This document shows, one piece after another, positions 21,340 to 46,138 of a stretch of 64,000 nt of DNA (position 1 is its first letter; each line of letters begins with the position of its first letter). The position numbers and the translations under genes are program-made. Source of the DNA: Scyliorhinus canicula (Eukaryota); contig NC_052149.1 in the NCBI RefSeq assembly GCF_902713615.1, forward strand, positions 15,294,260 through 15,358,259. Direction: 5' to 3'. The notes under the pieces are model-generated. The model worked only from the letters and a program-made list of their open reading frames with translations, made no database searches and was not told the origin of the DNA.

Positions 21340-21343
21340 CTGT

Positions 21344-22156
21344 TGTAGCCATGCTGGCCACGCAAAATGGACACTGAGCCAAACTAAAATGGAAGGCTGC
21401 TGAGAAACAGACAGTTCAGCCAGAACAGCAGTCTGCAAAGAGCAGTTTGCATTCTGCAGCAGCAGAAACCAGTTTGGGCTCAGGTGAAGAGACCTTAGCT
21501 AGGTGCAAATGGCAAAACGCTTTGCATGCTAATGAGGCCATCAGACTTGAACACCCACACAATAGATACATTTGGTTCTGAATGGACACATTCCAATCAA
21601 GACCCAGACATCGAGGCACCAGAAACCTCCGAACAAAAGGACATAAGAAACGCCCCCTCCATCACGGAGACCCCCTCGCATTGGGGAATTAATCCAGTAT
21701 CGATAAGAAATTGATCCAATAGGTAGAGCCCGCCCGGGAAGAGGGAAGGACAACGGAACCCCTATAAAAGATAGGGACCTCGTGTTGTCCGGTCTGTTAA
21801 ACCTGTGCTCCGGCCTCGACTGACACCTGGTACCCTGACTCCAGCCGTTGAGCACCAGCCGCCGAAACCGTAAGTTCAACGCTCGCTACGCGATCCAAGC
21901 CCGCTAGACTCCCAAGTGCCAGAACGCTTGCTGAAGGCTGCAGACAAAACCAGGACGAAGGCCTCGTTCTCTGACCTTGCCTGTTCCTGTTAGATAAGTA
22001 TTCTGTTTGCTTATGTTTAGTTGTAGCTTAGTCTCTTAGTGTGTGTGCATGAGTATTTATTATTAACTGTATAATAAATATTGATCGTTTGAACTTGACT
22101 AATCGGTGTATCGTCTTTATTACTTTGAACCCTTGAGGACCTGTGTTTCGTGCACA
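21344..22156 (+). repeat. 5' LTR (short U5)
   Basis: 21344-22129 matches 30073-30858 except C21833/T30562. CCAAT 21716, GC box near 21728, TATAAAA 21763, donor GTAAGT 21870, AATAAA 22073. Ends CGTGCACA just before the PBS. Confidence 0.9.
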
Positions 22157-22161
22157 TTTAG

Positions 22162-22180
22162 TGGCGACATCCGCCGGGAC
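22162..22180 (+). promoter_or_regulatory. Primer binding site, tRNA-Arg(UCU)-like
   Basis: TGGCGACATCCGCCGGGAC equals the complement of the recalled vertebrate tRNA-Arg(UCU) 3' end (TGGCGACTCCGCCGGGAC) plus one extra A. Confidence 0.75.
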
Positions 22181-22475
22181 CCTGTTGTAAGTGGAAACAC
22201 CACAGTGTTCAGGACCCTGAAATTTGAATTAGAACTCCAAATTGCAGAGAAATAAAGAGATCACAAGTATTCAAGGTGTTCAAAATAATAAGCGAAATTC
22301 GGAAGTGTGTTTTAGTGCATGCGTACTAACAGGGCTGTAAGGTAAAACTGAAAGCTTTTTGTTGCGACAAACTTTCGGTAGTTTTGTAATCGGAAAATAG
22401 CGTAAGCCGTACCCTTTTTCGAAACACCACCCCAGCAACCCCCTGTTCCAAATTATAAAAAGAGAGTCAGAGGAA

Positions 22476-24224
22476 ATGGCCATGCAGGCAATGGAACGCC
22501 TGATGGATCCAGCAAAGTTTGTGGTCGCAGCGACCAGCAGCAGTAGCAGAGTAGGCCAGTGTCCCACGTGGGAGCTGGAACTCCGCAAATATCTGCAGGG
22601 AAAGGGATGGCCCCTTTGGAAAGAGTTTTGTGCAAATGAGGAGACAGGTCCCGGAAGTATAGGTCATACTTGGTGGGAGAACCTCTCTCAGATACACAAA
22701 AAGAGTTTAAGTAAAGCACGCAAGCCGATGGCGATTGTGTCCTGCTTGGCACAGTTGCGAGGCGCAGAGGAGGTTATCAGGACGCTCCGGGCAGATTTAG
22801 AGGAAAGGAACCGAATGAGTAAGGTCGATGTCAGGGACATCGAGAAAGAAAACCTGGATCTTAAAGGGAAGTTGGCAGAGAAGGGTAGAGAGGTGGATGA
22901 TGCCAAGAGGGCTCACCAGTCTTGTCTAGCTCATCTGAACAGTTCCCAGACCCAGTATGAGAAAGCCTATCAGGACGTGCAACGTGCCGTTCTGATAAGA
23001 CAGGAATCGGAAAAGCAGGTGGAGGCATTGCAGAGGCAATGTTCCGATCTCAAAGCAGCTTTGAGAGCACTCCACGCTGCAACGACCGAACAAAGACAAA
23101 GCACAGTTGACCACGCGAAATGCAGAAAACAGATTGCGGAACTGCAATCTCTGCTTTCGGTGCAGAATGGCTTCCAAAGCACCTTTGGAGCACAGTTAGA
23201 TGGGGAAAATGCCCCAGATTGGCAGGAATTAAGCGAGACAGCGCAGCGTTATGTTCAGGGAACATGTGCGCCCGCAGCTCAGCAGAAACGACAGGCACCC
23301 CAACCCCCCACAGCTCAGACCATAACCGCACCCATGAATCCCGTAACCACACAGAGGAAAGCCGAATCAGAAGGCGCCCCAGACATAACTTACACCACCC
23401 CTTTAACAGTAACCCAGCTAAGGGACGCTTGTGAAAAGATCACTCCGTTCCTCCCCACCGCAGACCCCCACCAGTTCTTTGCGAAAGTAAAACAGCAGGC
23501 TACCATGTACGGCCTGGATGAGAGAGAGCAGGTTAAGCTCACCGTGCTGAGCTTAGACCAGAGTGTAGTGGCAGCCCTCCCCGACCCACAAAACGTGGCA
23601 GGAGGCAGCCTAGAGGAGATGCACACTGCTATTTTAGATGCCATCGGGTACAATAGAGGTGACCCCGTAGAAGGCTTGAATAAGTGCAGGCAGAAGAGAT
23701 CTGAACACCCCACAGCATTCGCCGGAAGGCTGTGGATTCACTTCAGCGCAGTTTTCGGACAGCTAGATAGAGCGCATTTAACCCGCGAGAACATGGTTAA
23801 GTGGACGCGCACAATTATCTCACACGCAACAGAAGCAGGACAGAGCGCTTGCAATAATTACGACCCCTCAGAAGAGGCCCATAACGAAAAATGGGTCCTC
23901 AAAAGATTGTCCCGCGCTTGGGAGCAATCGCTTCAGGCAAAAGCAAAGGTTAGATCCCCAGAAGAGGCTCAGGCTGCTGCAGATATCCAAGCAGTCAGAG
24001 AGCACCAGAAGCCCGCATGGGTAAATGAAGGCAAGAGCAGCCCTCAACAGAAAGGACAGGAATGCTATAACTGTGGACAGTTAGGGCATTGGGCAAAAGA
24101 GTGCCAAGCACCCCAGCGATCTCAGAGAGGCCAGCAGACAGGCACTCTGAACCGCAACAAAGCAAAACCAATCCACAATGTAGCAGTACAGTCAGGACCC
24201 ACCAATGTGGACGAGACGAACTGA
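22476..24224 (+). CDS. gag: Gag (582 aa): long coiled coil, capsid-like region, one CCHC zinc knuckle
   Basis: Open ORF after the PBS/leader; CYNCGQLGHWAKEC knuckle; ends in TGA in frame with pol. Confidence 0.92.
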   Translation: MAMQAMERLMDPAKFVVAATSSSSRVGQCPTWELELRKYLQGKGWPLWKEFCANEETGPGSIGHTWWENLSQIHKKSLSKARKPMAIVSCLAQLRGAEEVIRTLRADLEERNRMSKVDVRDIEKENLDLKGKLAEKGREVDDAKRAHQSCLAHLNSSQTQYEKAYQDVQRAVLIRQESEKQVEALQRQCSDLKAALRALHAATTEQRQSTVDHAKCRKQIAELQSLLSVQNGFQSTFGAQLDGENAPDWQELSETAQRYVQGTCAPAAQQKRQAPQPPTAQTITAPMNPVTTQRKAESEGAPDITYTTPLTVTQLRDACEKITPFLPTADPHQFFAKVKQQATMYGLDEREQVKLTVLSLDQSVVAALPDPQNVAGGSLEEMHTAILDAIGYNRGDPVEGLNKCRQKRSEHPTAFAGRLWIHFSAVFGQLDRAHLTRENMVKWTRTIISHATEAGQSACNNYDPSEEAHNEKWVLKRLSRAWEQSLQAKAKVRSPEEAQAAADIQAVREHQKPAWVNEGKSSPQQKGQECYNCGQLGHWAKECQAPQRSQRGQQTGTLNRNKAKPIHNVAVQSGPTNVDETN

Positions 24225-27200
24225 CGGTGTTCGGGCTCCCCCACTTGGGTCTGTGACACACTATGGGACTCATCAGGGAGGCCCGTAGTCACGGCAAAAG
24301 TCAAAGGGAAGCCCATAGAGTTATTGTGGGACACAGGAGGATCCCGCACCACCATTAACTCCACAACCACGGCACACGCAGACACGTGGCCGACCACCTC
24401 CACCATCACACTTAGCGGGTTCACCGGACACTCGCAGCAGGGACATATCACAGCACCCGTAGCGATCCAGCTAGGGAACATTAGCACAAGGCACCCCGTA
24501 GTTTTAGTAAATCTTCCCCGGACAGCAGAGCACATCCTGGGGATAGATTTTATGAACGCCCACAGCTTGTCGTTCGACCCAGTGAACCAGTGTGTCTGGC
24601 GAATGGCGAGATCAGACAGAGCCCCAGCCACCCTCACAGTAGGAGACTACGCTAATCGGATTAGCGCAGTGGGAGAGTACTCATTCGACCTGACTACACT
24701 CCACACCGACCGACAAATTAAGGCCCTTCTAAACAAACACAGGACAGCATTTGCAAGTCACCGTCATGACTGTGGCAGAATGACTGGACAAGTTCATGTT
24801 ACCGGACAGGACCCCCGACCGCAAAAGCAGTATAGATTTCCCCTCGAGGCAGAGGTGGAAATAGAAAAGGTTATAGGCAGCTTGTTGGACCAAGGTGTAC
24901 TGAGAACGGTAGCCTCCACCAACAATGCCCCTATTTGGCCAGTGAGGAAGCCCGATGGATCATGGCGTCTGACCATCGATTATCGGGAACTCAACAAAGT
25001 AACCCCCGCAGTAGCCCCACCGGTAGCTACTAGTCCCGAGACCATGCTCAAGCAGGGTCTCAACGCCAAGTACTTCACGGTATTGGACATCAGTAATGGA
25101 TTCTGGTCAATACCATTGGCAAAAGCGTGCCAATACAAATTCGCATTCACTTTTAAAACTCAGCAGTACACGTGGACATGCCTCCCACAAGGATTCCACA
25201 ATTCCCCCTCCATTTTCCACCGACAGCTGGCAAGTGGATTAGAAAAATTTTCCCGACCCGAATGTCTGGTACAGTACGTAGACGACCTACTACTGCAGAC
25301 AGACACAAAGGCAGAGCACATTTCGCTTCTGGCCGAACTCCTAGAACTCTTAACTGAAATTGGCTGTAAAGTTAACCCGAAAAAGGCCCAAATATTGGAA
25401 AGTAAAGTGATGTATTTGGGATCAGTCATCACGCACGGCAAACGCGAGATCGAATTCAAAAGAATTGATTCGATCGTCAAATTGCCCCTTCCCCAGAATG
25501 TATCAGCCCTCCGGTCGTTTTTAGGACTGGTTGGCTATTGTCGGAACCACATCGACGGATTCGCGACAAAAGCCGCCCCACTTTCAGACCTCCTTAAGAA
25601 AGGAGCCCCCTGGGAATGGCTTCCGCAGCATACAGGCGCTGTGGAAGAGTTAAAACGAGCCCTTAGTGCAGCACCCGCGCTGCTAGTCCCCGACCAACTT
25701 TCACCGTACGCAATCGAGGTAGCTAGCACAGATCTAACCCTCTCGGCCGTGTTGCTTCAAGAACGGCACGAGCAGCTAAGACCAGTGGCTTATGCCTCCC
25801 GACTGCTAGACCCAGTAGAACAAGGATTTTCAGCCTGTGAGAGGCACCTCCTTGCTGTCTTCTGGGCAGTGCAGTATTTCTCATACATCACCGGACTCAA
25901 CCCCATCACCATTCTAACCGAACACACACCCACACAGCTACTACTAGACGGTCGACTGAAGGACGGTTCAGTTAGCCAGATTAGGGCAGCTAGGTGGACC
26001 CTACTTTTACAAGGACGGGACATTACAGTGAAACGGACACGCACCCACACATACTTAGCAGACAACCTCCAATACCCAGGACAGCCCCATGACTGTGAAA
26101 TTGTAGCTCCCCTGCACAACACAGGACCCTTTTTAGCCAAAACACCCCCCAGGAAGATAGGGAACCCGAAACAAAGCCCCCAGCCCACAGACACGTGTGG
26201 ACCCTTGAGGATTTATGTAGACGGTTCCTCCACAGTTTTAAATGGTGAGCGTATCACAGGATGCGGCATCTACGTAGAGGACGCGCAGGGGCGCGCTCTC
26301 GAAGAAATCGCTCTTAAGTTACCAGGTCACTTAGGCGCGCAGGCAGCAGAGCTAGCAGCCATAGCGTACATAGTGGACCACCCCGATTCTTTCCCCAGCC
26401 CAGCAGACATATATTCAGACAGCTTATATGTCTGTAACAGTTTAACCGATTTTCTGCCCCTGTGGAGGACACGAGGTTTTGTCTCCGCAGACGGAAAACC
26501 CCTTCCATCAGCCCCTCTACTCCAGCATATTTTAGCGAAAGCGAAGGACAGGACCTTCGGCATTATAAAAGTTCGCAGCCACCATAGGTCATCACCACCT
26601 GGGAATGTAAAAGCCGACGCGTTGGCTAAGGCAGGTTCCAGGAGAGGACACTTATGGACCCCCCCAGCTAGCGCACCAGCTAGCGCCCCTGTGAGCGCAG
26701 TCCAAGTCTCACAGACTGATATTAAAGATCTCGTGGCAGCACAAAAACAGGACGGAGACCTCAGGGAGGTTTTCAAGGGAAACTTTGTGCCTGCTTACGA
26801 GCACTTTAAACACGCACTGACCACACATGAGGGTGTGATCATTAAGGACCGACTTTATGTGGTCCCACAGCAGGACAGGAATCAGATGATTGCCTTGTTC
26901 CATGACGGACACGGGCATCAGGGAATTGATGCAACAACGAGGCACCTCAGACAACTCTGTTGGTGGCCTGATCTCAGGAATGATGTAACGCACTACATAG
27001 AGAATTGCCTGATTTGTGCTCAGAATAACCCGGACAGGTATTCTAGGAAGGCACAACTTCGGCATACTCGCCCAGTTAACGGCCCTTGGACAAACCTCCA
27101 GATCGACTTTATAGGTCCATTGCCCCCTTGTAGGAATGGCTATAAATACGTTCTGGTGGTGATAGATACCTTTACCAAGTGGGTAGAGGCATTTCCCTCA

Positions 27201-28451
27201 CGAACAAATACAGCAAAGACAGCTGCAAAGATCCTGACCCACCACATCTTCACGAGATGGGGTTTACCCCGAAGTATCGATTCGGACCAGGGATCTCACT
27301 TTACAGGACGGGTCATGAGGAACGTCCTGACAATATTCGGAATCAAACAGAACTTCCACATTGCGTATCATCCACAGTCCAGCGGGATTGTGGAGCGCAT
27401 GAATCGGACCCTAAAAACTACCCTTAGGAAAATGGTTCAAGAGAACAATTCCACATGGGATTCAGTGCTCCCCTTTGCACTTATGTTCATAAGGAACACT
27501 GTCTCCACATCGACAGGACACACACCACATACACTCATGACCGGACGCCCTATGAAAGGTACAGAATTCCTTTTAGGACTGGACATGACAAGCCCCGAAG
27601 TGACGGCCCTCACACATGAAAAGGCAGTTAAAGAACTAGTTGAGACTGTGAGGTCTGCACAGCTCGCAGCCGCAGTCCAGCTAGGGAAACGCCGACAGCA
27701 ACATACTGCCTGTTTCAATAAGACCGTACACACCACAGAATTCCAGGTTGGGCAACAGGTAATGTTATCTGTTTATAACCCCAGCAGTTTTTTGGCTCCA
27801 AAATATTCCGGCCCCTACTCAATTTCGGACAAAATTAGCCCCTCCGTTTACAGGATAAAGTATCCTAATGGGAAGACCGCGTGGTTCCATATAAACCAGT
27901 TAAAGGCATATGGAACACAGGCCAACCATGCCCACCATGTCCTGCTAGACGCAGCAGAACACTTCACCCCGCCCACCAGAGACACTTTTCCACCATCCCC
28001 CTCACAGACCAGTACATCAACGGACTCGCCCACGACTCCGCCCACAGACCACTACAGACCACGCCCCGACACGCCCACAAGCTGCCACAGCAGAGACAGT
28101 AGGACAGACACTGACTCTGAAGACAGCGACACCACACAGCCATACAGCCCACACTGCACCACCTACGACCCCGACTCCAGTGACCCCATGGAAGTCACTT
28201 ACCTTAAAAACCCAGAACCACCACCCGACCCCGCCTACCCCGACAACACACTCGACGCCACACAATGGCACAGGGACAATTCCTACAGACTTGTCCGCAA
28301 TGACGAGAGTGACCCCCGGTCACACAACTCCAAAATAGCATGCCTGATCCACACAAGGGTGTGGGATCCGGGAGAGCAGGACGACACGGTGTCTGACTCC
28401 CGACACGGCAACCCCTTTGTGACCCTGTTCACAGAGGCAGAATCAAAGTGA
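24225..28451 (+). CDS. pol: Pol (PR-RT-tether-RNase H-IN), most likely expressed by readthrough of the gag UGA
   Basis: Same frame as gag with no further stop. PR LLWDTGG; RT LDISNGF, LPQG, YVDD; degenerate RNase H (EVAST...TEH); second RNase H (YVDGSS, AQAAEL, IYSDS, GNVKADALAK); IN HHCC, LQIDF / SDQG / VERMN, GPY motif. Confidence 0.95.
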   Translation, partial: RCSGSPTWVCDTLWDSSGRPVVTAKVKGKPIELLWDTGGSRTTINSTTTAHADTWPTTSTITLSGFTGHSQQGHITAPVAIQLGNISTRHPVVLVNLPRTAEHILGIDFMNAHSLSFDPVNQCVWRMARSDRAPATLTVGDYANRISAVGEYSFDLTTLHTDRQIKALLNKHRTAFASHRHDCGRMTGQVHVTGQDPRPQKQYRFPLEAEVEIEKVIGSLLDQGVLRTVASTNNAPIWPVRKPDGSWRLTIDYRELNKVTPAVAPPVATSPETMLKQGLNAKYFTVLDISNGFWSIPLAKACQYKFAFTFKTQQYTWTCLPQGFHNSPSIFHRQLASGLEKFSRPECLVQYVDDLLLQTDTKAEHISLLAELLELLTEIGCKVNPKKAQILESKVMYLGSVITHGKREIEFKRIDSIVKLPLPQNVSALRSFLGLVGYCRNHIDGFATKAAPLSDLLKKGAPWEWLPQHTGAVEELKRALSAAPALLVPDQLSPYAIEVASTDLTLSAVLLQERHEQLRPVAYASRLLDPVEQGFSACERHLLAVFWAVQYFSYITGLNPITILTEHTPTQLLLDGRLKDGSVSQIRAARWTLLLQGRDITVKRTRTHTYLADNLQYPGQPHDCEIVAPLHNTGPFLAKTPPRKIGNPKQSPQPTDTCGPLRIYVDGSSTVLNGERITGCGIYVEDAQGRALEEIALKLPGHLGAQAAELAAIAYIVDHPDSFPSPADIYSDSLYVCNSLTDFLPLWRTRGFVSADGKPLPSAPLLQHILAKAKDRTFGIIKVRSHHRSSPPGNVKADALAKAGSRRGHLWTPPASAPASAPVSAVQVSQTDIKDLVAAQKQDGDLREVFKGNFVPAYEHFKHALTTHEGVIIKDRLYVVPQQDRNQMIALFHDGHGHQGIDATTRHLRQLCWWPDLRNDVTHYIENCLICAQNNPDRYSRKAQLRHTRPVNGPWTNLQIDFIGPLPPCRNGYKYVLVVIDTFTKWVEAFPSRTNTAKTAAKILTHHIFTRWGLPRSIDSDQGSHFTGRVMRNVLTIFGIKQNFHIAYHPQSSGIVERMNRTLKTTLRKMVQENNSTWDSVLPFALMFIRNTVSTSTGHTPHTLMTGRPMKGTEFLLGLDMTSPEVTALTHEKAVKELVETVRSAQLAAAVQLGKRRQQHTACFNKTVHTTEFQVGQQVMLSVYNPSSFLAPKYSGPYSISDKISPSVYRIKYPNGKTAWFHINQLKAYGTQANHAHHVLLDAAEHFTPPTRDTFPPSPSQTSTSTDSPTTPPTDHYRPRPDTPTSCHSRDSRTDTDSEDSDTTQPYSPHCTTYDPDSSDPMEVTYLKNPEPPPDPAYPDNTLDATQWHRDNSYRLVRNDESDPRSHNSKIACLIHTRVWDPGEQDDTVSDSRHGNPFVTLFTEAESK

Positions 28452-29390
28452 GGTGTCCAGATGATGTAAGATAGGAATCGTTTGAGGGAAACGATGTCCT
28501 TTCTGATGGAACCTGCACGTATGTTTGTCTTCGTTTTATGTTTGTTTGTCTCAGGATTGTACAATGTTTCAGCTGGAGGATGGACATCTTCTTTTCAGCT
28601 GAAAAGATTGTGACCACCTCACATACACGTTAGTTTGTCCGCAGATACTTCTGAGAACTTCGGTTTGATTGGAGATCTTTTCCAAAGTTGTAAGGCCACA
28701 CGCCAAATAGTTTATCTGCAGATATCTCTGAGAACTTCAGTGATGTCCTCAGTTGGAGCATCTTGGCTCCCTTGGTTTCTTTTTTAGGTGCCCCTCTATT
28801 CGGCGAAATAGAGGCTGCAAGTCATGGTAAACACATTCGTACCCGTTTTTCCAGGTTACTCAGGCAGTGGACAAACGGCACTGAGGACCCGCCCTGTCTG
28901 AGAACCAACCCTTGGTCAGCCAAGCTCGGGTATGGCACAGCACGCCCTACCCGGGGATCCCATCCAACTCGTACCCGTAGCGGCCCATACGCAACTCATT
29001 CGGATGTTTCTTTCCAAATTTGTTTTCATTTTAGGTTAGGTAGCCCTTCGGCCGCCATCCCACATGCTATTTACATCCGGAAACATTCGGATGGTAAATC
29101 AGCAAAGCCTGCGAGACGGCTCGCAGAAGGAAGGATTGTTAGGTGTATGCTGGTCTTTAAATTCGCTTTTTGAAAAAAAAAATGAGGGGAGTCACAGGGT
29201 GTGACTTAGCCAGTCATTTTAAAGGGTCAATTGGGTTTTGAAAGACAGATGCACTAACAAGTAAAGGTCTTAAACTGTGTATTGACAGATACTGTGCTTG
29301 ATCCCAAAGGTTTCAAAGGACGAGACAGAGGTCGAAGCCAGGATTGTCAATACCGGAGGAAGAAGGAAGAGAAAGAGGAAGAACAGCAAA

Positions 29391-29744
29391 ATGATGGAAG
29401 CCCACTTATTACTATTTAATGTCATATGTATATGTGTGGAAACAAGACACGTTTCCCCCACAACCCCCACCGTAAATGTTAGTACAACAAACCCCCAGTG
29501 CTCAGCTCTGATCAGCGAGGTTCAGACCTGGTGTACTAAATTCATGACGTGGTACTCCATGTCCTACATAATCGAATCACTGTTGGTGATTGCGATCCTC
29601 ACCATCCTAGTGCAGACCCTCAGGTTGAGGAAATGGAAGAGGAGAGCCTCTCGTTCCAGCACCTCACCCATCTATAGAGTGCAATCCCCCATCTTCGGAT
29701 TCCACCAAACCCCTCAACCCCTCACTGATTACAACACTCTGTAA
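29391..29744 (+). CDS. Putative 117-aa single-pass membrane protein in the env position
   Basis: ATGATGG start 102 nt after the acceptor TTGACAG| (29288), with branch-like CACTAAC at 29252. Hydrophobic N-terminus, NVS sequon, C-x10-C, TM YIIESLLVIAILTILV, basic RLRKWKRR, tail ending DYNTL. Confidence 0.65.
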   Translation: MMEAHLLLFNVICICVETRHVSPTTPTVNVSTTNPQCSALISEVQTWCTKFMTWYSMSYIIESLLVIAILTILVQTLRLRKWKRRASRSSTSPIYRVQSPIFGFHQTPQPLTDYNTL

Positions 29745-30062
29745 ATAAAATTCAGCCATGTATTATATTGTTCCATACTCGACTGCCGAGTTGGGAAGTG
29801 TGATGTTGTGGTGTGAATGGTTAAGATTTTAGAGTGATTAAATGTTTAAGTTAAGGTTAAGGTTAATAGTGATAGGTAGAGGTTCCCAATTGTAGTAATG
29901 CATGTCCCTTTGACATAGGGCCAAGTAGAAATGTTAGTTAAAATTTTTTTCTCTTCTTCCCATAGTTTAGAACAGAGTAGAACAGGAACTGGCAAGAGGT
30001 CAGAACACAAGGAGGCAAAGTACATAGGTGATCCTTCACAATAGTATGATTGTGAGGATCAC

Positions 30063-30072
30063 AAGGAGGGAA
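30063..30072 (+). promoter_or_regulatory. Polypurine tract
   Basis: AAGGAGGGAA immediately before the TG of the 3' LTR. Confidence 0.85.
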
Positions 30073-31024
30073 TGTAGCCATGCTGGCCACGCAAAATGGA
30101 CACTGAGCCAAACTAAAATGGAAGGCTGCTGAGAAACAGACAGTTCAGCCAGAACAGCAGTCTGCAAAGAGCAGTTTGCATTCTGCAGCAGCAGAAACCA
30201 GTTTGGGCTCAGGTGAAGAGACCTTAGCTAGGTGCAAATGGCAAAACGCTTTGCATGCTAATGAGGCCATCAGACTTGAACACCCACACAATAGATACAT
30301 TTGGTTCTGAATGGACACATTCCAATCAAGACCCAGACATCGAGGCACCAGAAACCTCCGAACAAAAGGACATAAGAAACGCCCCCTCCATCACGGAGAC
30401 CCCCTCGCATTGGGGAATTAATCCAGTATCGATAAGAAATTGATCCAATAGGTAGAGCCCGCCCGGGAAGAGGGAAGGACAACGGAACCCCTATAAAAGA
30501 TAGGGACCTCGTGTTGTCCGGTCTGTTAAACCTGTGCTCCGGCCTCGACTGACACCTGGTATCCTGACTCCAGCCGTTGAGCACCAGCCGCCGAAACCGT
30601 AAGTTCAACGCTCGCTACGCGATCCAAGCCCGCTAGACTCCCAAGTGCCAGAACGCTTGCTGAAGGCTGCAGACAAAACCAGGACGAAGGCCTCGTTCTC
30701 TGACCTTGCCTGTTCCTGTTAGATAAGTATTCTGTTTGCTTATGTTTAGTTGTAGCTTAGTCTCTTAGTGTGTGTGCATGAGTATTTATTATTAACTGTA
30801 TAATAAATATTGATCGTTTGAACTTGACTAATCGGTGTATCGTCTTTATTACTTTGAATTTGACCTTGGAATACTTGTGACGTTGCCTATACGGCAGCTG
30901 GCGACTCCAGAGCTTAAATAATTACATAGAACAGAGCCTAGCAGTGTTAAGCACACGTCGAACTCGGAGGCGTGTTAATACACTCCAATAAACGCGTTTT
31001 ACGCCCATAGTAAAACGTGCAACA
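30073..31024 (+). repeat. 3' LTR (long U5)
   Basis: Copy of the 5' LTR to 30858, then 166 unique bp ending CGTGCAACA, followed by TSD CTGT. Confidence 0.9.
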
Positions 31025-31164
31025 CTGTCGATCTGAAGTCCACACTGATACGCTCGTCCATTAATGGTGGATTCCTTATCACAGCTGGCATCGCTGGAAG
31101 GGGTTACAGAGGAGTTATTTTCTGCATTGCCCAAGGTGATGTACAGCCTTTGCGTTGGCCCATT
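31025..31164 (-). CDS. ODF2L: ODF2L-like coding exon 3, 5' part (split by provirus)
   Basis: ctttgtattag|AAT GGG CCA... NGPTQRLYITLGNAENNSS...INGRAYQCGLQID; resembles the recalled ODF2 GPTHRLEIT motif. Confidence 0.85.
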
Positions 31165-31934
31165 CTAATACAAAGGAACAAGAATTATATTTAGTTTTTA
31201 TACTTCAGACAAGTCTAGGTCGATGTCGAGTTGGGCACCCTATCAAAAGTACATTCAGGCAATTTCACAGACTATCTGAATGAAAATATAATAACTTTTT
31301 CTTACATATTCAACAACTACAATTTGCATTGATATAATGCCTTTAAAGTAACAAAGCATCGCAAGGTGCTTCACAGGAGTGTTATAAAATAAGACAGTGA
31401 GCCACACAAGGTGTTAGAGCAATTGACATTCCTTCCACACTCTGGGCAAAGATGTTTCGCCTGAATTCCCGATTGGATTTACTTGTGATGATCTTGTATT
31501 TATGGCCCCTAGTTCTCGTCTGATCCACAAGTGGAAACATCTTCTTTACGTCTGCCCCATCAAATCCTTTATCAATCTATTAGGTCGTCCCTCAGCCTTC
31601 CCCTTTCTGGAGAAAAGAGGCCCAGTCTGATCAATCATGCCGGAGATAACCTCTCACTGGAGTCATCAGTCATTTTGGTAGCAGGTGAAAAAAAATTAGT
31701 TCTGCCTTATGCTTATTCTAAACTCCCCAAGGCGTCATTTTAACACTAAGGATACAATAAATGTATTCAGAATTTGTGAGAGGGAACATTGATACTGAAT
31801 GCAATTATATATTTGGATCAGATTTTCAAAGGGAGGGCCTGGATTATTTAATGTAGCAGACATATCAGAACACAGAGACATAGGCCTGAACTTTGCACTC
31901 CTCCCAGAAGGTTTTGAGGCGGTGGGATAGGTGT

Positions 31935-42687: not shown

Positions 42688-45600
42688 CCAGAGCACAGGA
42701 ATGCAAGATCGGCTAAGGGTCTGCTGATGGGCCCAGGATCAAAGAACTTCTCAGAACTCTGCATTTTGCCTCACCTCTATTCCCAATACAACACATGTCA
42801 CCCAAGATGACATTCTGGAGCATATAGTCACAGGCATATCCATTGGCTGTATCTGTGCCACAGAAAGAGCATTAAGATCCTAGATTCTTTTTCTATTTTT
42901 CCCTCAATTCTACTTTTTGGTTGTGATGTTGGCTTTGCAATGTAGCAACATTGGCTGTGGTATTACTGAAGTCATTCTCACTCTTTTTGTTTTGGTTATG
43001 TATAAACAAATGTATTTGAAGTGAATTTCCAAATGGAAAATAAAAATGTATTGATTATTAATTTTGAAAGCTTGCCCTGCACGCCCAAGTCAAGATCTTT
43101 TTCAAAAAAAACTTGTACAATAATAATGATCTTTATTACTGTCACAAGTCAGCTTACATTACACTGCAATGAAGTTACTGTGAAAAGCCCCAGGTCGCCT
43201 CACTCTGGCACCTGTTCAGGTACACTGAGGGAGAATTCAGAATGTCCAATTCGCCTAACAAGCACGTCTTTCGGGACTTGTGGGAGGAAACTGGAGCTCC
43301 CGGAGGAAGCCCACGCAGACACGGGGAGAACGTGCAGACTCCGCACAGACAGTGACCCAAGCTGGGACTCAAACCTGGGTCCCTAATGGATGTGGGCGTC
43401 GTTGGCTGGGTCAGCATTTGTTGCCATCCCTAATTGCCCTTGAACTGAGTGGCTTGCTTGACCATTTCAGAGGGGCAGTTATGAGTCCACCACATTGCCT
43501 GGGTGTGGAATCACATGTCGGGTAAGGACGGACCAGGTAAGGATGGCAGATTTCCGTCCCTGAGGGACACGAGTGAAGCAACCGTTTTTCATGACAATCA
43601 ACGATAGCTCCATGGAAACTATTAGCTATGCTAATTTTATATTCCAGGTTTATCAATTGAGAATTTAACTTCCACCAGGTGAGGCTTGAACCCTCGCCCC
43701 CAGCCCCCAAGAGCATTATCCAGAGCCTGTGGAATATTAGCCCAGTGACATTACCACTGCATCAACACCTAGGAAGGGTGCGATTGCACTTAAAGGGTGC
43801 AGAGGGGATTCAGCAGGTTGTTGCCTGGTCTGGAGCGTTTCACCTATGCAGAGCGGCTGGCTAAACTGAGATTGTTTTCCTTGGAACAAAAACAAACGGA
43901 TGACCTCCTTGAGGTGCTTAAAATTATGAGGGACATAGATAGGAAGGGACTTTTTCCCTTAGTGGAGGGGTCACCAACCAGAGGGCATTGATTTAAAGTA
44001 AGGGGCAGGAGGGGATTTGAGGAGAAGTTTTTTCACCCAGAGGGTGTTGGGAATCTGGAACTCGCTGCCTGAAAGGAAAGGGCCCTTACAACATTTAAGA
44101 AGCATTTAGACAAGCACTTGAAAAACACCATAGCATACAAGGTAACGGCAAAGTGCTGGAAAATGGGATTAGAGTTGATTGGTGCTTGATAGCCGGCATG
44201 GACACACAGGGCCTCCTTTTGTCCTGTAAAACTCAGTGATTATCTTCCTCAAATATATATAATAAATATTAAGAAAATTTGCCGTCCTATCGCAGCAACT
44301 CCTGGGGAATCTGTTGTATACCAACCAGTCTGGTAAACCAGTTCACCATTCCTCTGGAACCTGTCACTGGAACTCTTCCACCCAGCTGTGGTTTCAGAGC
44401 AGGGGTTTGACCCCAGTGTGGTTTCAGGGCAGGGGTTTGACCCCAGTGTGGTTTCAGGGCAGGGGTTTGACCCCAGTGTGGTTTCAGGGCAGGGGTTTGT
44501 CCCACTGTGGTTTCTGGGCAGGGTTTTGACCCCAGTGTGGTTTCAGAGCAGGGGTTTGACCCCAGTGGGGTTTCAGGGCAGGGGTTTGTCCCACTGTGGT
44601 TTCAGGGCAGGGGGTTGACCCCAGTGTGGTTTCAGGGCAGGGGTTTGTCCCCAGTGTGGTTTCTGGGCAGGTGTTTGACCCCAGTGTGGTTTCAGGGCAG
44701 GGGTTTGACCCCAGTGTGGTTTCAGGGCAGGGGGTTGACCCCACTGTGGTTTCTGGGCATGTGATTGACCCCAGTGTGGTTTCTGGGCAGGGGGATGTCC
44801 CCAGTGTGGTTTCAGAGCAGGGGTTTGACCCCAGTGTGGTTTCTGGGCAGGGGTTTGACCCCAGTGTGGTTTCAGGGCAGGGTTTGACCCCAGTGTGGTT
44901 TCAGAGCAGTGGTTTGACCCCAGCGTGGTTTCAGGGCAGGGGTTTGTCCCACTGTGGTTTCTGGGCAGGGGTTTGACCCCAGTGTGGTTTCTGGGCAGGG
45001 GTTTGACCCCAGTGTGGTTTCAGAGCAGGGGTTTGACCCCAGCGTGGTTTCAGGGCAGGGGTTTGTCCCACTGTGGTTTCTGGGCAGGGGTTTGGCCCAC
45101 TGTGGTTTCTGGGCAGGGGTTTGACCCTAGTGTGGTTTCTGGGCAGGGGTTTGATCCTAGTGTGGTTTCTGGGCAGGGGGTTGACCCCAGTGTGGTTTCT
45201 GGGCAGGGGTTTGACCCCAGTGTGGTTTCTGGGCAGGGGGATGTCCCCAGTGTGGTTTCTGGGCAGGGGTTGACCCCAGCGTGGTTTCTGGGCAGGGGGA
45301 TGTCCCCAGTGTGGTTTCTGGGCAGGGGTTGACCCCAGTGTGGTTTCTGGGCAGGGGTTGACCCCAGCGTGGTTTCTGGGCAGGGGGATGTCCCCAGTGT
45401 GGTTTCTGGGCAGGGGTTTGATCCCAGTGTGGTTTCTGGGCAGAGGTTTGATCCCAGTGTGGTTTCTGGGCAGGGGTTTGACCCCAGTGTGGTTTCTGGG
45501 CAGAGGTTTGATCCCAGTGTGGTTTCTGGGCAGGGGTTTGACCCCAGTGTGGTTTCTGGGCAGAGGTTTGACCCCAGTATGGTTTCTGGACAGGGGTTTG

Positions 45601-45815
45601 TCCCCAGTGTAGTTTCTGGGCAGGGGTTTGATCCCAGTGTGGTTTCAGGGCAGAGATTTGACCCCAGTGTGGTTTCAGAGCAGGGGTTTGACCCCAGTGT
45701 GGATTCTGGGCACAGCTTGACCCCAGTGTGGTTTCTGGGCAGGGGTTTGACCCCAGTGTGGTTTCAGGGCAGGGGTTTGACCCCAGTGTGGTTTCAGGGC
45801 AGGGGTTTGACCCCA
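42688..45815 (+). repeat. 3.1-kb direct duplication, copy 1
   Basis: Nearly identical to 46137-49264 (offset 3448-3449; about 4 differences seen by eye). Confidence 0.93.
44380..45815 (+). repeat. 30-bp G-rich minisatellite, about 48 units
   Basis: Unit CCCCAGTGTGGTTTC(A/T)GGGCAGGGGTTTGA. Confidence 0.95.
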
Positions 45816-46138
45816 TAGAACATAGAACAGTACAGCACAGAACAGGCCCTTCGGCCCTCAATGTTGTGCCGAACAATGATCACCCTACTTTAAACCCATG
45901 TAACCCGTAACCCAACAATCCCCCCATTAACCTTACACTACGGGCAATTTAGCATGGCCAATCCACCTAACCCGCACATCTTTGGACTGTGGGAGGAAAC
46001 CGGAGCACCCGGAGGAAACCCACGCACACAGGGGGAGGACGTGCAGACTCCACACAGACAGTGACCCAGCCGGGAATCGAACCTGGGACCCTGGAGCTGT
46101 GAAGCATTGATGCTAACCACCATGCTACCGTGAGGCCC
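45814..46138 (-). mobile_element. Full-length V-SINE with CR1-type (TTCTATG)n tail at the duplication junction
   Basis: Minus strand GGGCCTCACGGTAGCATGG...GGCCGAAGGGCCTGTTCTGTGCTGTACTGTTCTATGTTCTATG. Confidence 0.92.

Follow-up and report, generated by a model that had tools for sequence, protein, structure and literature searches.

Non-identical U5 ends in a young env-less endogenous retrovirus, read as a possible one-off recombinant of two co-packaged RNAs

Non-identical LTRs that arise through faulty or two-genome strand transfer have already been described (PMC9278108, PMC12657518). In HIV-1, 26 of 88 proviruses carried asymmetric LTRs, which were attributed to plus-strand transfer between two genomes, and most of them (24 of the 26) were plain deletions of the 3' LTR (PMC9278108). 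The insertion described here resembles those proviruses in having non-identical LTRs for which strand transfer between two co-packaged genomes is invoked, but differs: it is a germ-line copy whose reading frames are open, and the end of its 5' U5 is replaced by what looks like a diverged homologue. Recombinants of Onsen-type LTR retrotransposons come from co-packaged family members and take U3 and R/U5 from different parents, as we propose for this element, yet those recombinants have two identical mosaic LTRs (PMC5668417, PMC6894440), whereas the LTRs of this copy differ. Because intermolecular first-strand transfer alone leads to two identical mosaic LTRs (PMC6894440), an asymmetry of the present kind needs an extra step. 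A search of the literature on asymmetric or non-identical LTRs and on a heteroduplex origin, which covered mainly open-access papers, most of them on HIV-1, found no systematically asymmetric family.

In its coding content the element is closest to the basal ERVs of fish, amphibians and coelacanth (SnRV-like elements and the foamy-like elements of frog and shark), which are described with a dual RNase H Pol, as found here (PMC4977317, PMC4422223, PMC5512871); unlike them, it has no ORF of env size. Its nearest named proteins belong to frog and coelacanth elements (51-56% over the RT region), and a quick tree, for which 72 of 120 hits were kept, grouped it with the frog and coelacanth elements on the retrovirus side (SH-aLRT 99, short branch). 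In this tree, whose labels were assigned by us with no labelled SnRV, FLERV or loki reference among the sequences, the element appears to stand apart from a teleost clade that we took, by such a label, as loki-like. Lokiretroviruses share gag, a pol with tether and RNase H, and two LTRs with the element, but they are described with a paramyxovirus F-like env and an RT in a clade sister to retroviruses (PMC7947760), whereas the element has no env and falls on the retrovirus side. Assignment as a foamy-like ERV was considered and rejected: the Gag of the element contains a zf-CCHC domain (E 6e-8), and foamy-like Gag is described as having no Cys-His box (PMC5210030). The accounts of Troyka (PMC12440569) and Odin (PMC9040795) had no bearing on the LTR asymmetry.

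The element occupies positions 21344-31024 of the window, that is, of the whole 64-kb stretch of DNA that was analysed (Table 1). It is a 9.7-kb, env-less ERV with gag and pol open in the window sequence, and it is a young, retrovirus-like, germ-line copy in a host genome whose SINEs suggest a shark. The canonical LTR features are present, with TG...CA termini, a TSD of 4 bp (not 5) that is intact on both sides, a PBS after the 5' LTR and a polypurine tract before the 3' LTR. The domain search recovered the Retroviridae-type Pol order PR-RT-tether-RNase H-IN. No env-size ORF was found between pol and the 3' LTR, where the plus strand has only two frames of at least 60 aa (152 and 159 aa), neither with a Pfam match. 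The gag and pol genes share a single frame with one TGA between them (24222-24224), which suggests UGA read-through or a spliced pol message. The tRNA for the PBS at 22162-22180 is putatively Arg-UCU; no literature naming it was found. The spacing between the LTR terminal CA and the PBS is usually two bases in retroviruses, and the five-base spacer of this element, present in its long-U5 relatives as well, would imply unusual processing of the end.

Table 1. Features of the element and their coordinates in the window
Feature	Position	Strand	Basis or remark
Left TSD, CTGT	21340..21343	+	sequence
5' LTR, 813 bp, short-U5 form	21344..22156	+	LTR comparison
TATAAA box	21763..21768; 3' LTR counterpart 30492	+	motif; function inferred
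AATAAA, both LTRs	22073..22078; 3' LTR counterpart 30802	+	likely poly(A) signal; role inferred
U5 arm, pairs with leader across PBS	22117..22150	+	folding and comparison; predicted
Foreign 23 bp replacing long-form 30860-31021	22131..22153	+	LTR comparison and relatives' contigs
5-nt spacer, LTR terminal CA to PBS	22157..22161	+	same in long-U5 relatives
PBS	22162..22180	+	sequence
Leader arm, inverted partner of U5 arm	22255..22291	+	folding and comparison; predicted
gag, open, CCHC zinc knuckle	22476..24224	+	ORF and domain search; ends TGA, same frame as pol
pro-pol, open, 1408 aa	24225..28451	+	protease, RT, tether RNase H, RNase H, integrase
117-aa ORF at env position	29391..29744	+	one hydrophobic segment, then basic stretch
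Polypurine tract directly before 3' LTR	30063..30072	+	sequence
3' LTR, 952 bp, long-U5 form	30073..31024	+	LTR comparison
Long U5 end	30859..31024	+	leader-pairing arm, hairpins, PBS-like 10-mer, second AATAAA, att end
Right TSD, CTGT	31025..31028	+	sequence

With starts at 21344 and 30073, the LTRs are identical at 785 of 786 bp up to 22129/30858, after which the 5' LTR continues for 27 bp (22130-22156) and the 3' LTR for 166 bp (30859-31024). The initial annotation, which was made from the letters of the window, had reported this pattern, and pairwise comparison of the LTRs bore it out; the intact TSD (CTGT, 4 bp) and the similar att-like ends it had noted are likewise there, with a CGTGC..CA motif at both ends. 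Two further statements needed correction. The point mismatch at 21833 (C) and 30562 (T) had been described as the only one and as lying in R. The mismatch is there, and it probably does lie in R, judging by a start site placed from the TATAAA at 21763, but it is not alone. At 30859, all related contigs listed in four of four runs (see below) read C and continue as the long form, while the 3' LTR of the window reads T and the 5' LTR reads C at 22130. The true break is therefore one base later than 22129/30858, so that the foreign piece is 22131-22153 and 23 bp stand where the long form has 162 bp; a second point change, private to the 3' LTR, also separates the LTRs. The two U5 tails had also been presented as different, which holds for their lengths and sequences but does not make them unrelated, as the first 15-20 bases of one tail are homologous to those of the other, and both to leader 22261-22291 in reverse complement.

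The short tail has about six edits in 27 bp beside the single mismatch in 786 bp upstream, and the short U5 is thus not a product of gradual decay. Two of the edits are doubled letters shortened by one base. No other source of the 27 bp was found within the window (the best other ungapped match in the element was 17/27), and no second short-U5 copy was seen in the 64 kb. In the assembled sequence, the asymmetry at 21344-31024 is a real-looking, single oddity.

Both tails begin with the inverted partner of leader 22255-22291, an arrangement predicted to form a long stem with the leader across the PBS (z -2.5; 4 of 200 shuffles). A U5-leader stem is also present in avian retrovirus. In HIV-1 a stem of this kind, across the PBS, has been named (PMC1865047); the predicted stem is like it, and differs in being retained by two U5 forms of very different length. 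The predicted pairing of arm and leader amounts to -29.7 kcal/mol for the short form, -31.0 for the long form and -8.0 for the common part alone. In tests devised after the pairing had been noticed, 1 of 2000 shuffles paired equally well, as did 7 of 2000 versions of the long arm after an equal number of random edits. Compared with the long arm, the short arm is without the two arm-side bulges and has the same gap pattern as the leader; at three positions it also carries substitutions found in neither the long arm nor its own leader. On the simplest account, the 23 bp would not be a scramble but look like a diverged homologue of the U5 arm, an allele that evolved in a relative under the same pairing constraint. 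An Rfam search of both U5 forms gave two chance-level matches and no ribozyme or known RNA.

We then turned to relatives of the element in public contigs. Among the runs listed, 20 of 24 (8 studies, one organism) contain 64-68% of the element's words. These runs are assembled contigs, none recorded as RNA or DNA, and rare variants drop out in such contigs. Four of them (X1, X2, X5 and X9), from four studies, were aligned to 22040-31200. X5 and X9 each have a contig in which the long-U5 end at 31021 (or up to 3 positions further) runs straight into 22154 and on through the spacer to the PBS; the depth of this joint (58.2 in X5, 55.8 in X9) equals the total depth listed at leader position 22209, with one contig counted. 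X1 has the same join in the form of loose ends, with the long-U5 end before 22154 in 2 contigs and the start of the spacer and PBS behind 31024 in 4. The joints listed for X2 include none of this kind, and a distance-to-end of 56 at 22209 would place the start of that piece at 22154. Since relatives have the long U5 joined to the PBS spacer, the 5' LTR of the family normally carries the long U5 and replication is ordinary. For the relatives sampled, a long U5 in the 5' LTR with canonical replication is the family norm; the symmetric long-U5 copies predicted in the initial annotation are thus found, and the systematic asymmetry that it had entertained is contradicted for the family sampled. The U5 found before the PBS is also the terminal U5 of the element in relatives, but not in the 21344-31024 copy.

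The rows listed for the four runs cover 40 of the 1242 differences, 15 of the 24 joints, 24 of the 537 loose ends and 32 of the 4410 pieces, and the short U5 occurs in none of these. By word share, the lineage of the relatives is about 98.7% identical to the element (about 1.3% away), and 23 of the 34 gag-pol differences listed were synonymous, against 23% expected at random (sites classed singly, some in the same codon). From the word share and the synonymous excess, we conclude that the runs represent a sister lineage and that the joins are not tied to this locus; the element's own sub-lineage may be unsampled by the four runs. LTR variants with about 5-6 differences per 30 letters (by eye) are present at 30643 in X1 and X9, and at such divergence they indicate that donors of the needed divergence exist. 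Contigs at 22097 in X1 and X9 were not readable as short-U5 contigs and could reflect SNP bubbles in the shared LTR. A fall in summed contig depth over 30859-30914, which would fit poly(A) addition after the first AATAAA, was discounted, as contig depth is not a level. Beyond the runs, 0 of 7 candidate viral contigs were related to the element and none matched the short U5, a PBS-pattern search of metagenome and genome contigs gave no match, and the only metagenome matches were 4 distant ones at gypsy level (25-27%), which were not used.

We favour, with a probability of about 0.55 for two routes taken together, the reading that the element is a one-off recombinant in which a co-packaged relative with a short U5 supplied the 5' U5; both the donor RNA and the transfer route are putative. 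In the standard scheme, the right end of the provirus derives from minus-strand strong-stop DNA. Minus-strand priming on a long-U5 RNA would, under that scheme, have fixed the long 3' end, and the 5' U5 would have been supplied by a second RNA with a short U5. By one route, the minus strand, having arrived at the PBS, would have copied the second RNA through its intact PBS-U5 before rejoining at the U5-leader stem, at its conserved 13-14-nt base; a 139-nt loop would have been left and resolved after integration. For this route 23 bp from the donor would be enough, and a diverged subfamily may have served as donor. By the other, plus-strand strong-stop DNA from the second RNA would have been transferred onto this minus strand; it counts against this route that the donor would have to be 99.9% identical in U3-R yet about 75% in U5.

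A two-genome origin is supported by the long-U5 norm in relatives, the retained leader pairing and att-like end, the intact TSD and the diverged LTR variants. Counting against it, no other short-U5 copy was found among the contig matches listed, in the window or among the viral contigs. Both U5 types are needed, and the long type was found independently, while the short type was not among the matches listed. Co-packaging of two variants with intermolecular first-strand transfer had been the proposal of the initial annotation. Its two-genome origin stands as the best reading, but first transfer by itself does not suffice, as it gives identical mosaic LTRs (PMC6894440). Nor can the mismatch in R be taken as a sign of the second genome, given that the 3' LTR has its own private change at 30859 and that point changes arise without one.

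Several alternatives bear on the same evidence. A private deletion with insertion would need no donor: RT may have slipped over hairpins in the long U5 as the 5' LTR was being completed, or about 140 bp may have been lost after insertion to host end-joining repair, which left a short patchwork insert. This is unlikely in our estimate, if the least so of the rivals. It agrees with the lack of a second short copy in the matches listed, the window and the viral contigs, with the tiling of the 23 bp by 4 exact pieces from the neighbourhood (4 or fewer were enough in 55 of 2000 shuffles), with the hairpin-rich long U5 (whole-sequence folding weakly better than shuffles, z -1.6) and with published 5' LTR defects through faulty plus-strand transfer (PMC12657518). 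A direct-sense likeness of the 3' part of the 23 bp to leader 22301-22319 (26 of 1000 shuffles) would also agree, weakly, but was rejected as not significant over the 10 region-strand tests of which it was one. A single clean deletion after insertion, as the initial annotation had allowed, was rejected because no one deletion yields the short form, and only the version with an insertion stays as a rival. Even so, a copy of the element's own leader arm should match it exactly, whereas the short arm matches at 12 of 15, and random damage seldom retains the pairing (the 7 of 2000 above). Gene conversion of the 5' LTR end after insertion, by a short-U5 relative elsewhere in the genome, would fit the preserved TSD and the diverged LTR variants of relatives, and homology on two sides (R upstream, PBS-leader downstream) exists only at the 5' LTR, which is the affected side. 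It would however require a very short tract to swap 162 bp for 23 bp, no donor was among the contig matches listed, and we hold it to be quite improbable.

We are as doubtful of a local assembly or consensus error at the end of the 5' LTR. The locus is known from the assembly, all relatives listed carry the long form, two of the edits shorten a doubled letter by one base, and the window holds a near-identical 3.1-kb tandem duplication (99.87%) that is itself possibly an assembly fault. Yet 6 kb of gag-pol run without a frameshift, the two LTRs are the same at 785 of 786 bp, the window has no N, unique flank lies 813 bp away from the site, and retention of the leader pairing is not what an error would lead one to expect. 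It is very improbable that every copy of the sub-lineage has a short U5 at its 5' end and a long U5 at its 3' end through non-canonical priming or transfer, for instance by an early primer translocation to the 3' end of an RNA that reads through the long U5. The PBS-like 10-mer of the long U5 and its AATAAA, 32 nt before the end, would suit this route, and the runs sample a sister lineage and not the element's own. Against it, in relatives of about 99% identity the PBS is preceded directly by the long U5 at full leader depth, a new mode of replication is unlikely to arise within 1.3% divergence, and the long U5 would be lost in one round under the standard scheme.

If the recombinant reading is true, the element preserves, in the germ line, the trace of a rare strand-transfer event between two genomes and offers a natural minimal U5, consisting of a stem arm and an att end, in place of one that is 139 bp longer. 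Such copies would be mishandled by LTR-divergence dating and by LTR finders. There is no pointer to a new replication mechanism. Only systematic asymmetry, which is very improbable, would overturn the textbook rule, and it would then represent a way of retroviral replication that does not make the two LTRs identical.

The protein encoded at the env position is possibly of greater interest than the LTR asymmetry. It has an N-terminal hydrophobic patch, one N-glycosylation sequon and a single 19-aa hydrophobic segment (56-79) adjoining the basic stretch. A splice-acceptor-like sequence lies upstream of its ORF (about 29250-29288), and in three runs of relatives the contigs that cover the ORF region show few differences. 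Pfam domain and homology searches found no homologue. The layout resembles that of the sORF2/FAST-like cell-fusion proteins of env-less insect retrotransposons (PMC11952523), but an N-terminal myristoylation glycine is absent here.

Some smaller features of the locus were also recorded. The PBS-like 10-mer of the long U5 (30899-30908) lies behind a hairpin and shares its first 7 letters with the true PBS; it could be a second tRNA contact or a remnant of an old U5-PBS duplication, and a literature search on this motif found nothing related. The second AATAAA (30987-30992) lies between two hairpins. In run X1, the consensus of the loose ends past 31024 tracks the PBS for only 7 letters and then turns to other sequence, perhaps from a copy integrated with a partial PBS or from a variant PBS. 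The tandem duplication (42688-45815 and 46137-49264), which contains a 30-bp minisatellite, is either very recent or an assembly fault. The non-coding region after pol contains a 34-bp direct repeat (28631-28664 and 28708-28741, 85%) and an 18-bp palindrome at 28590-28607.
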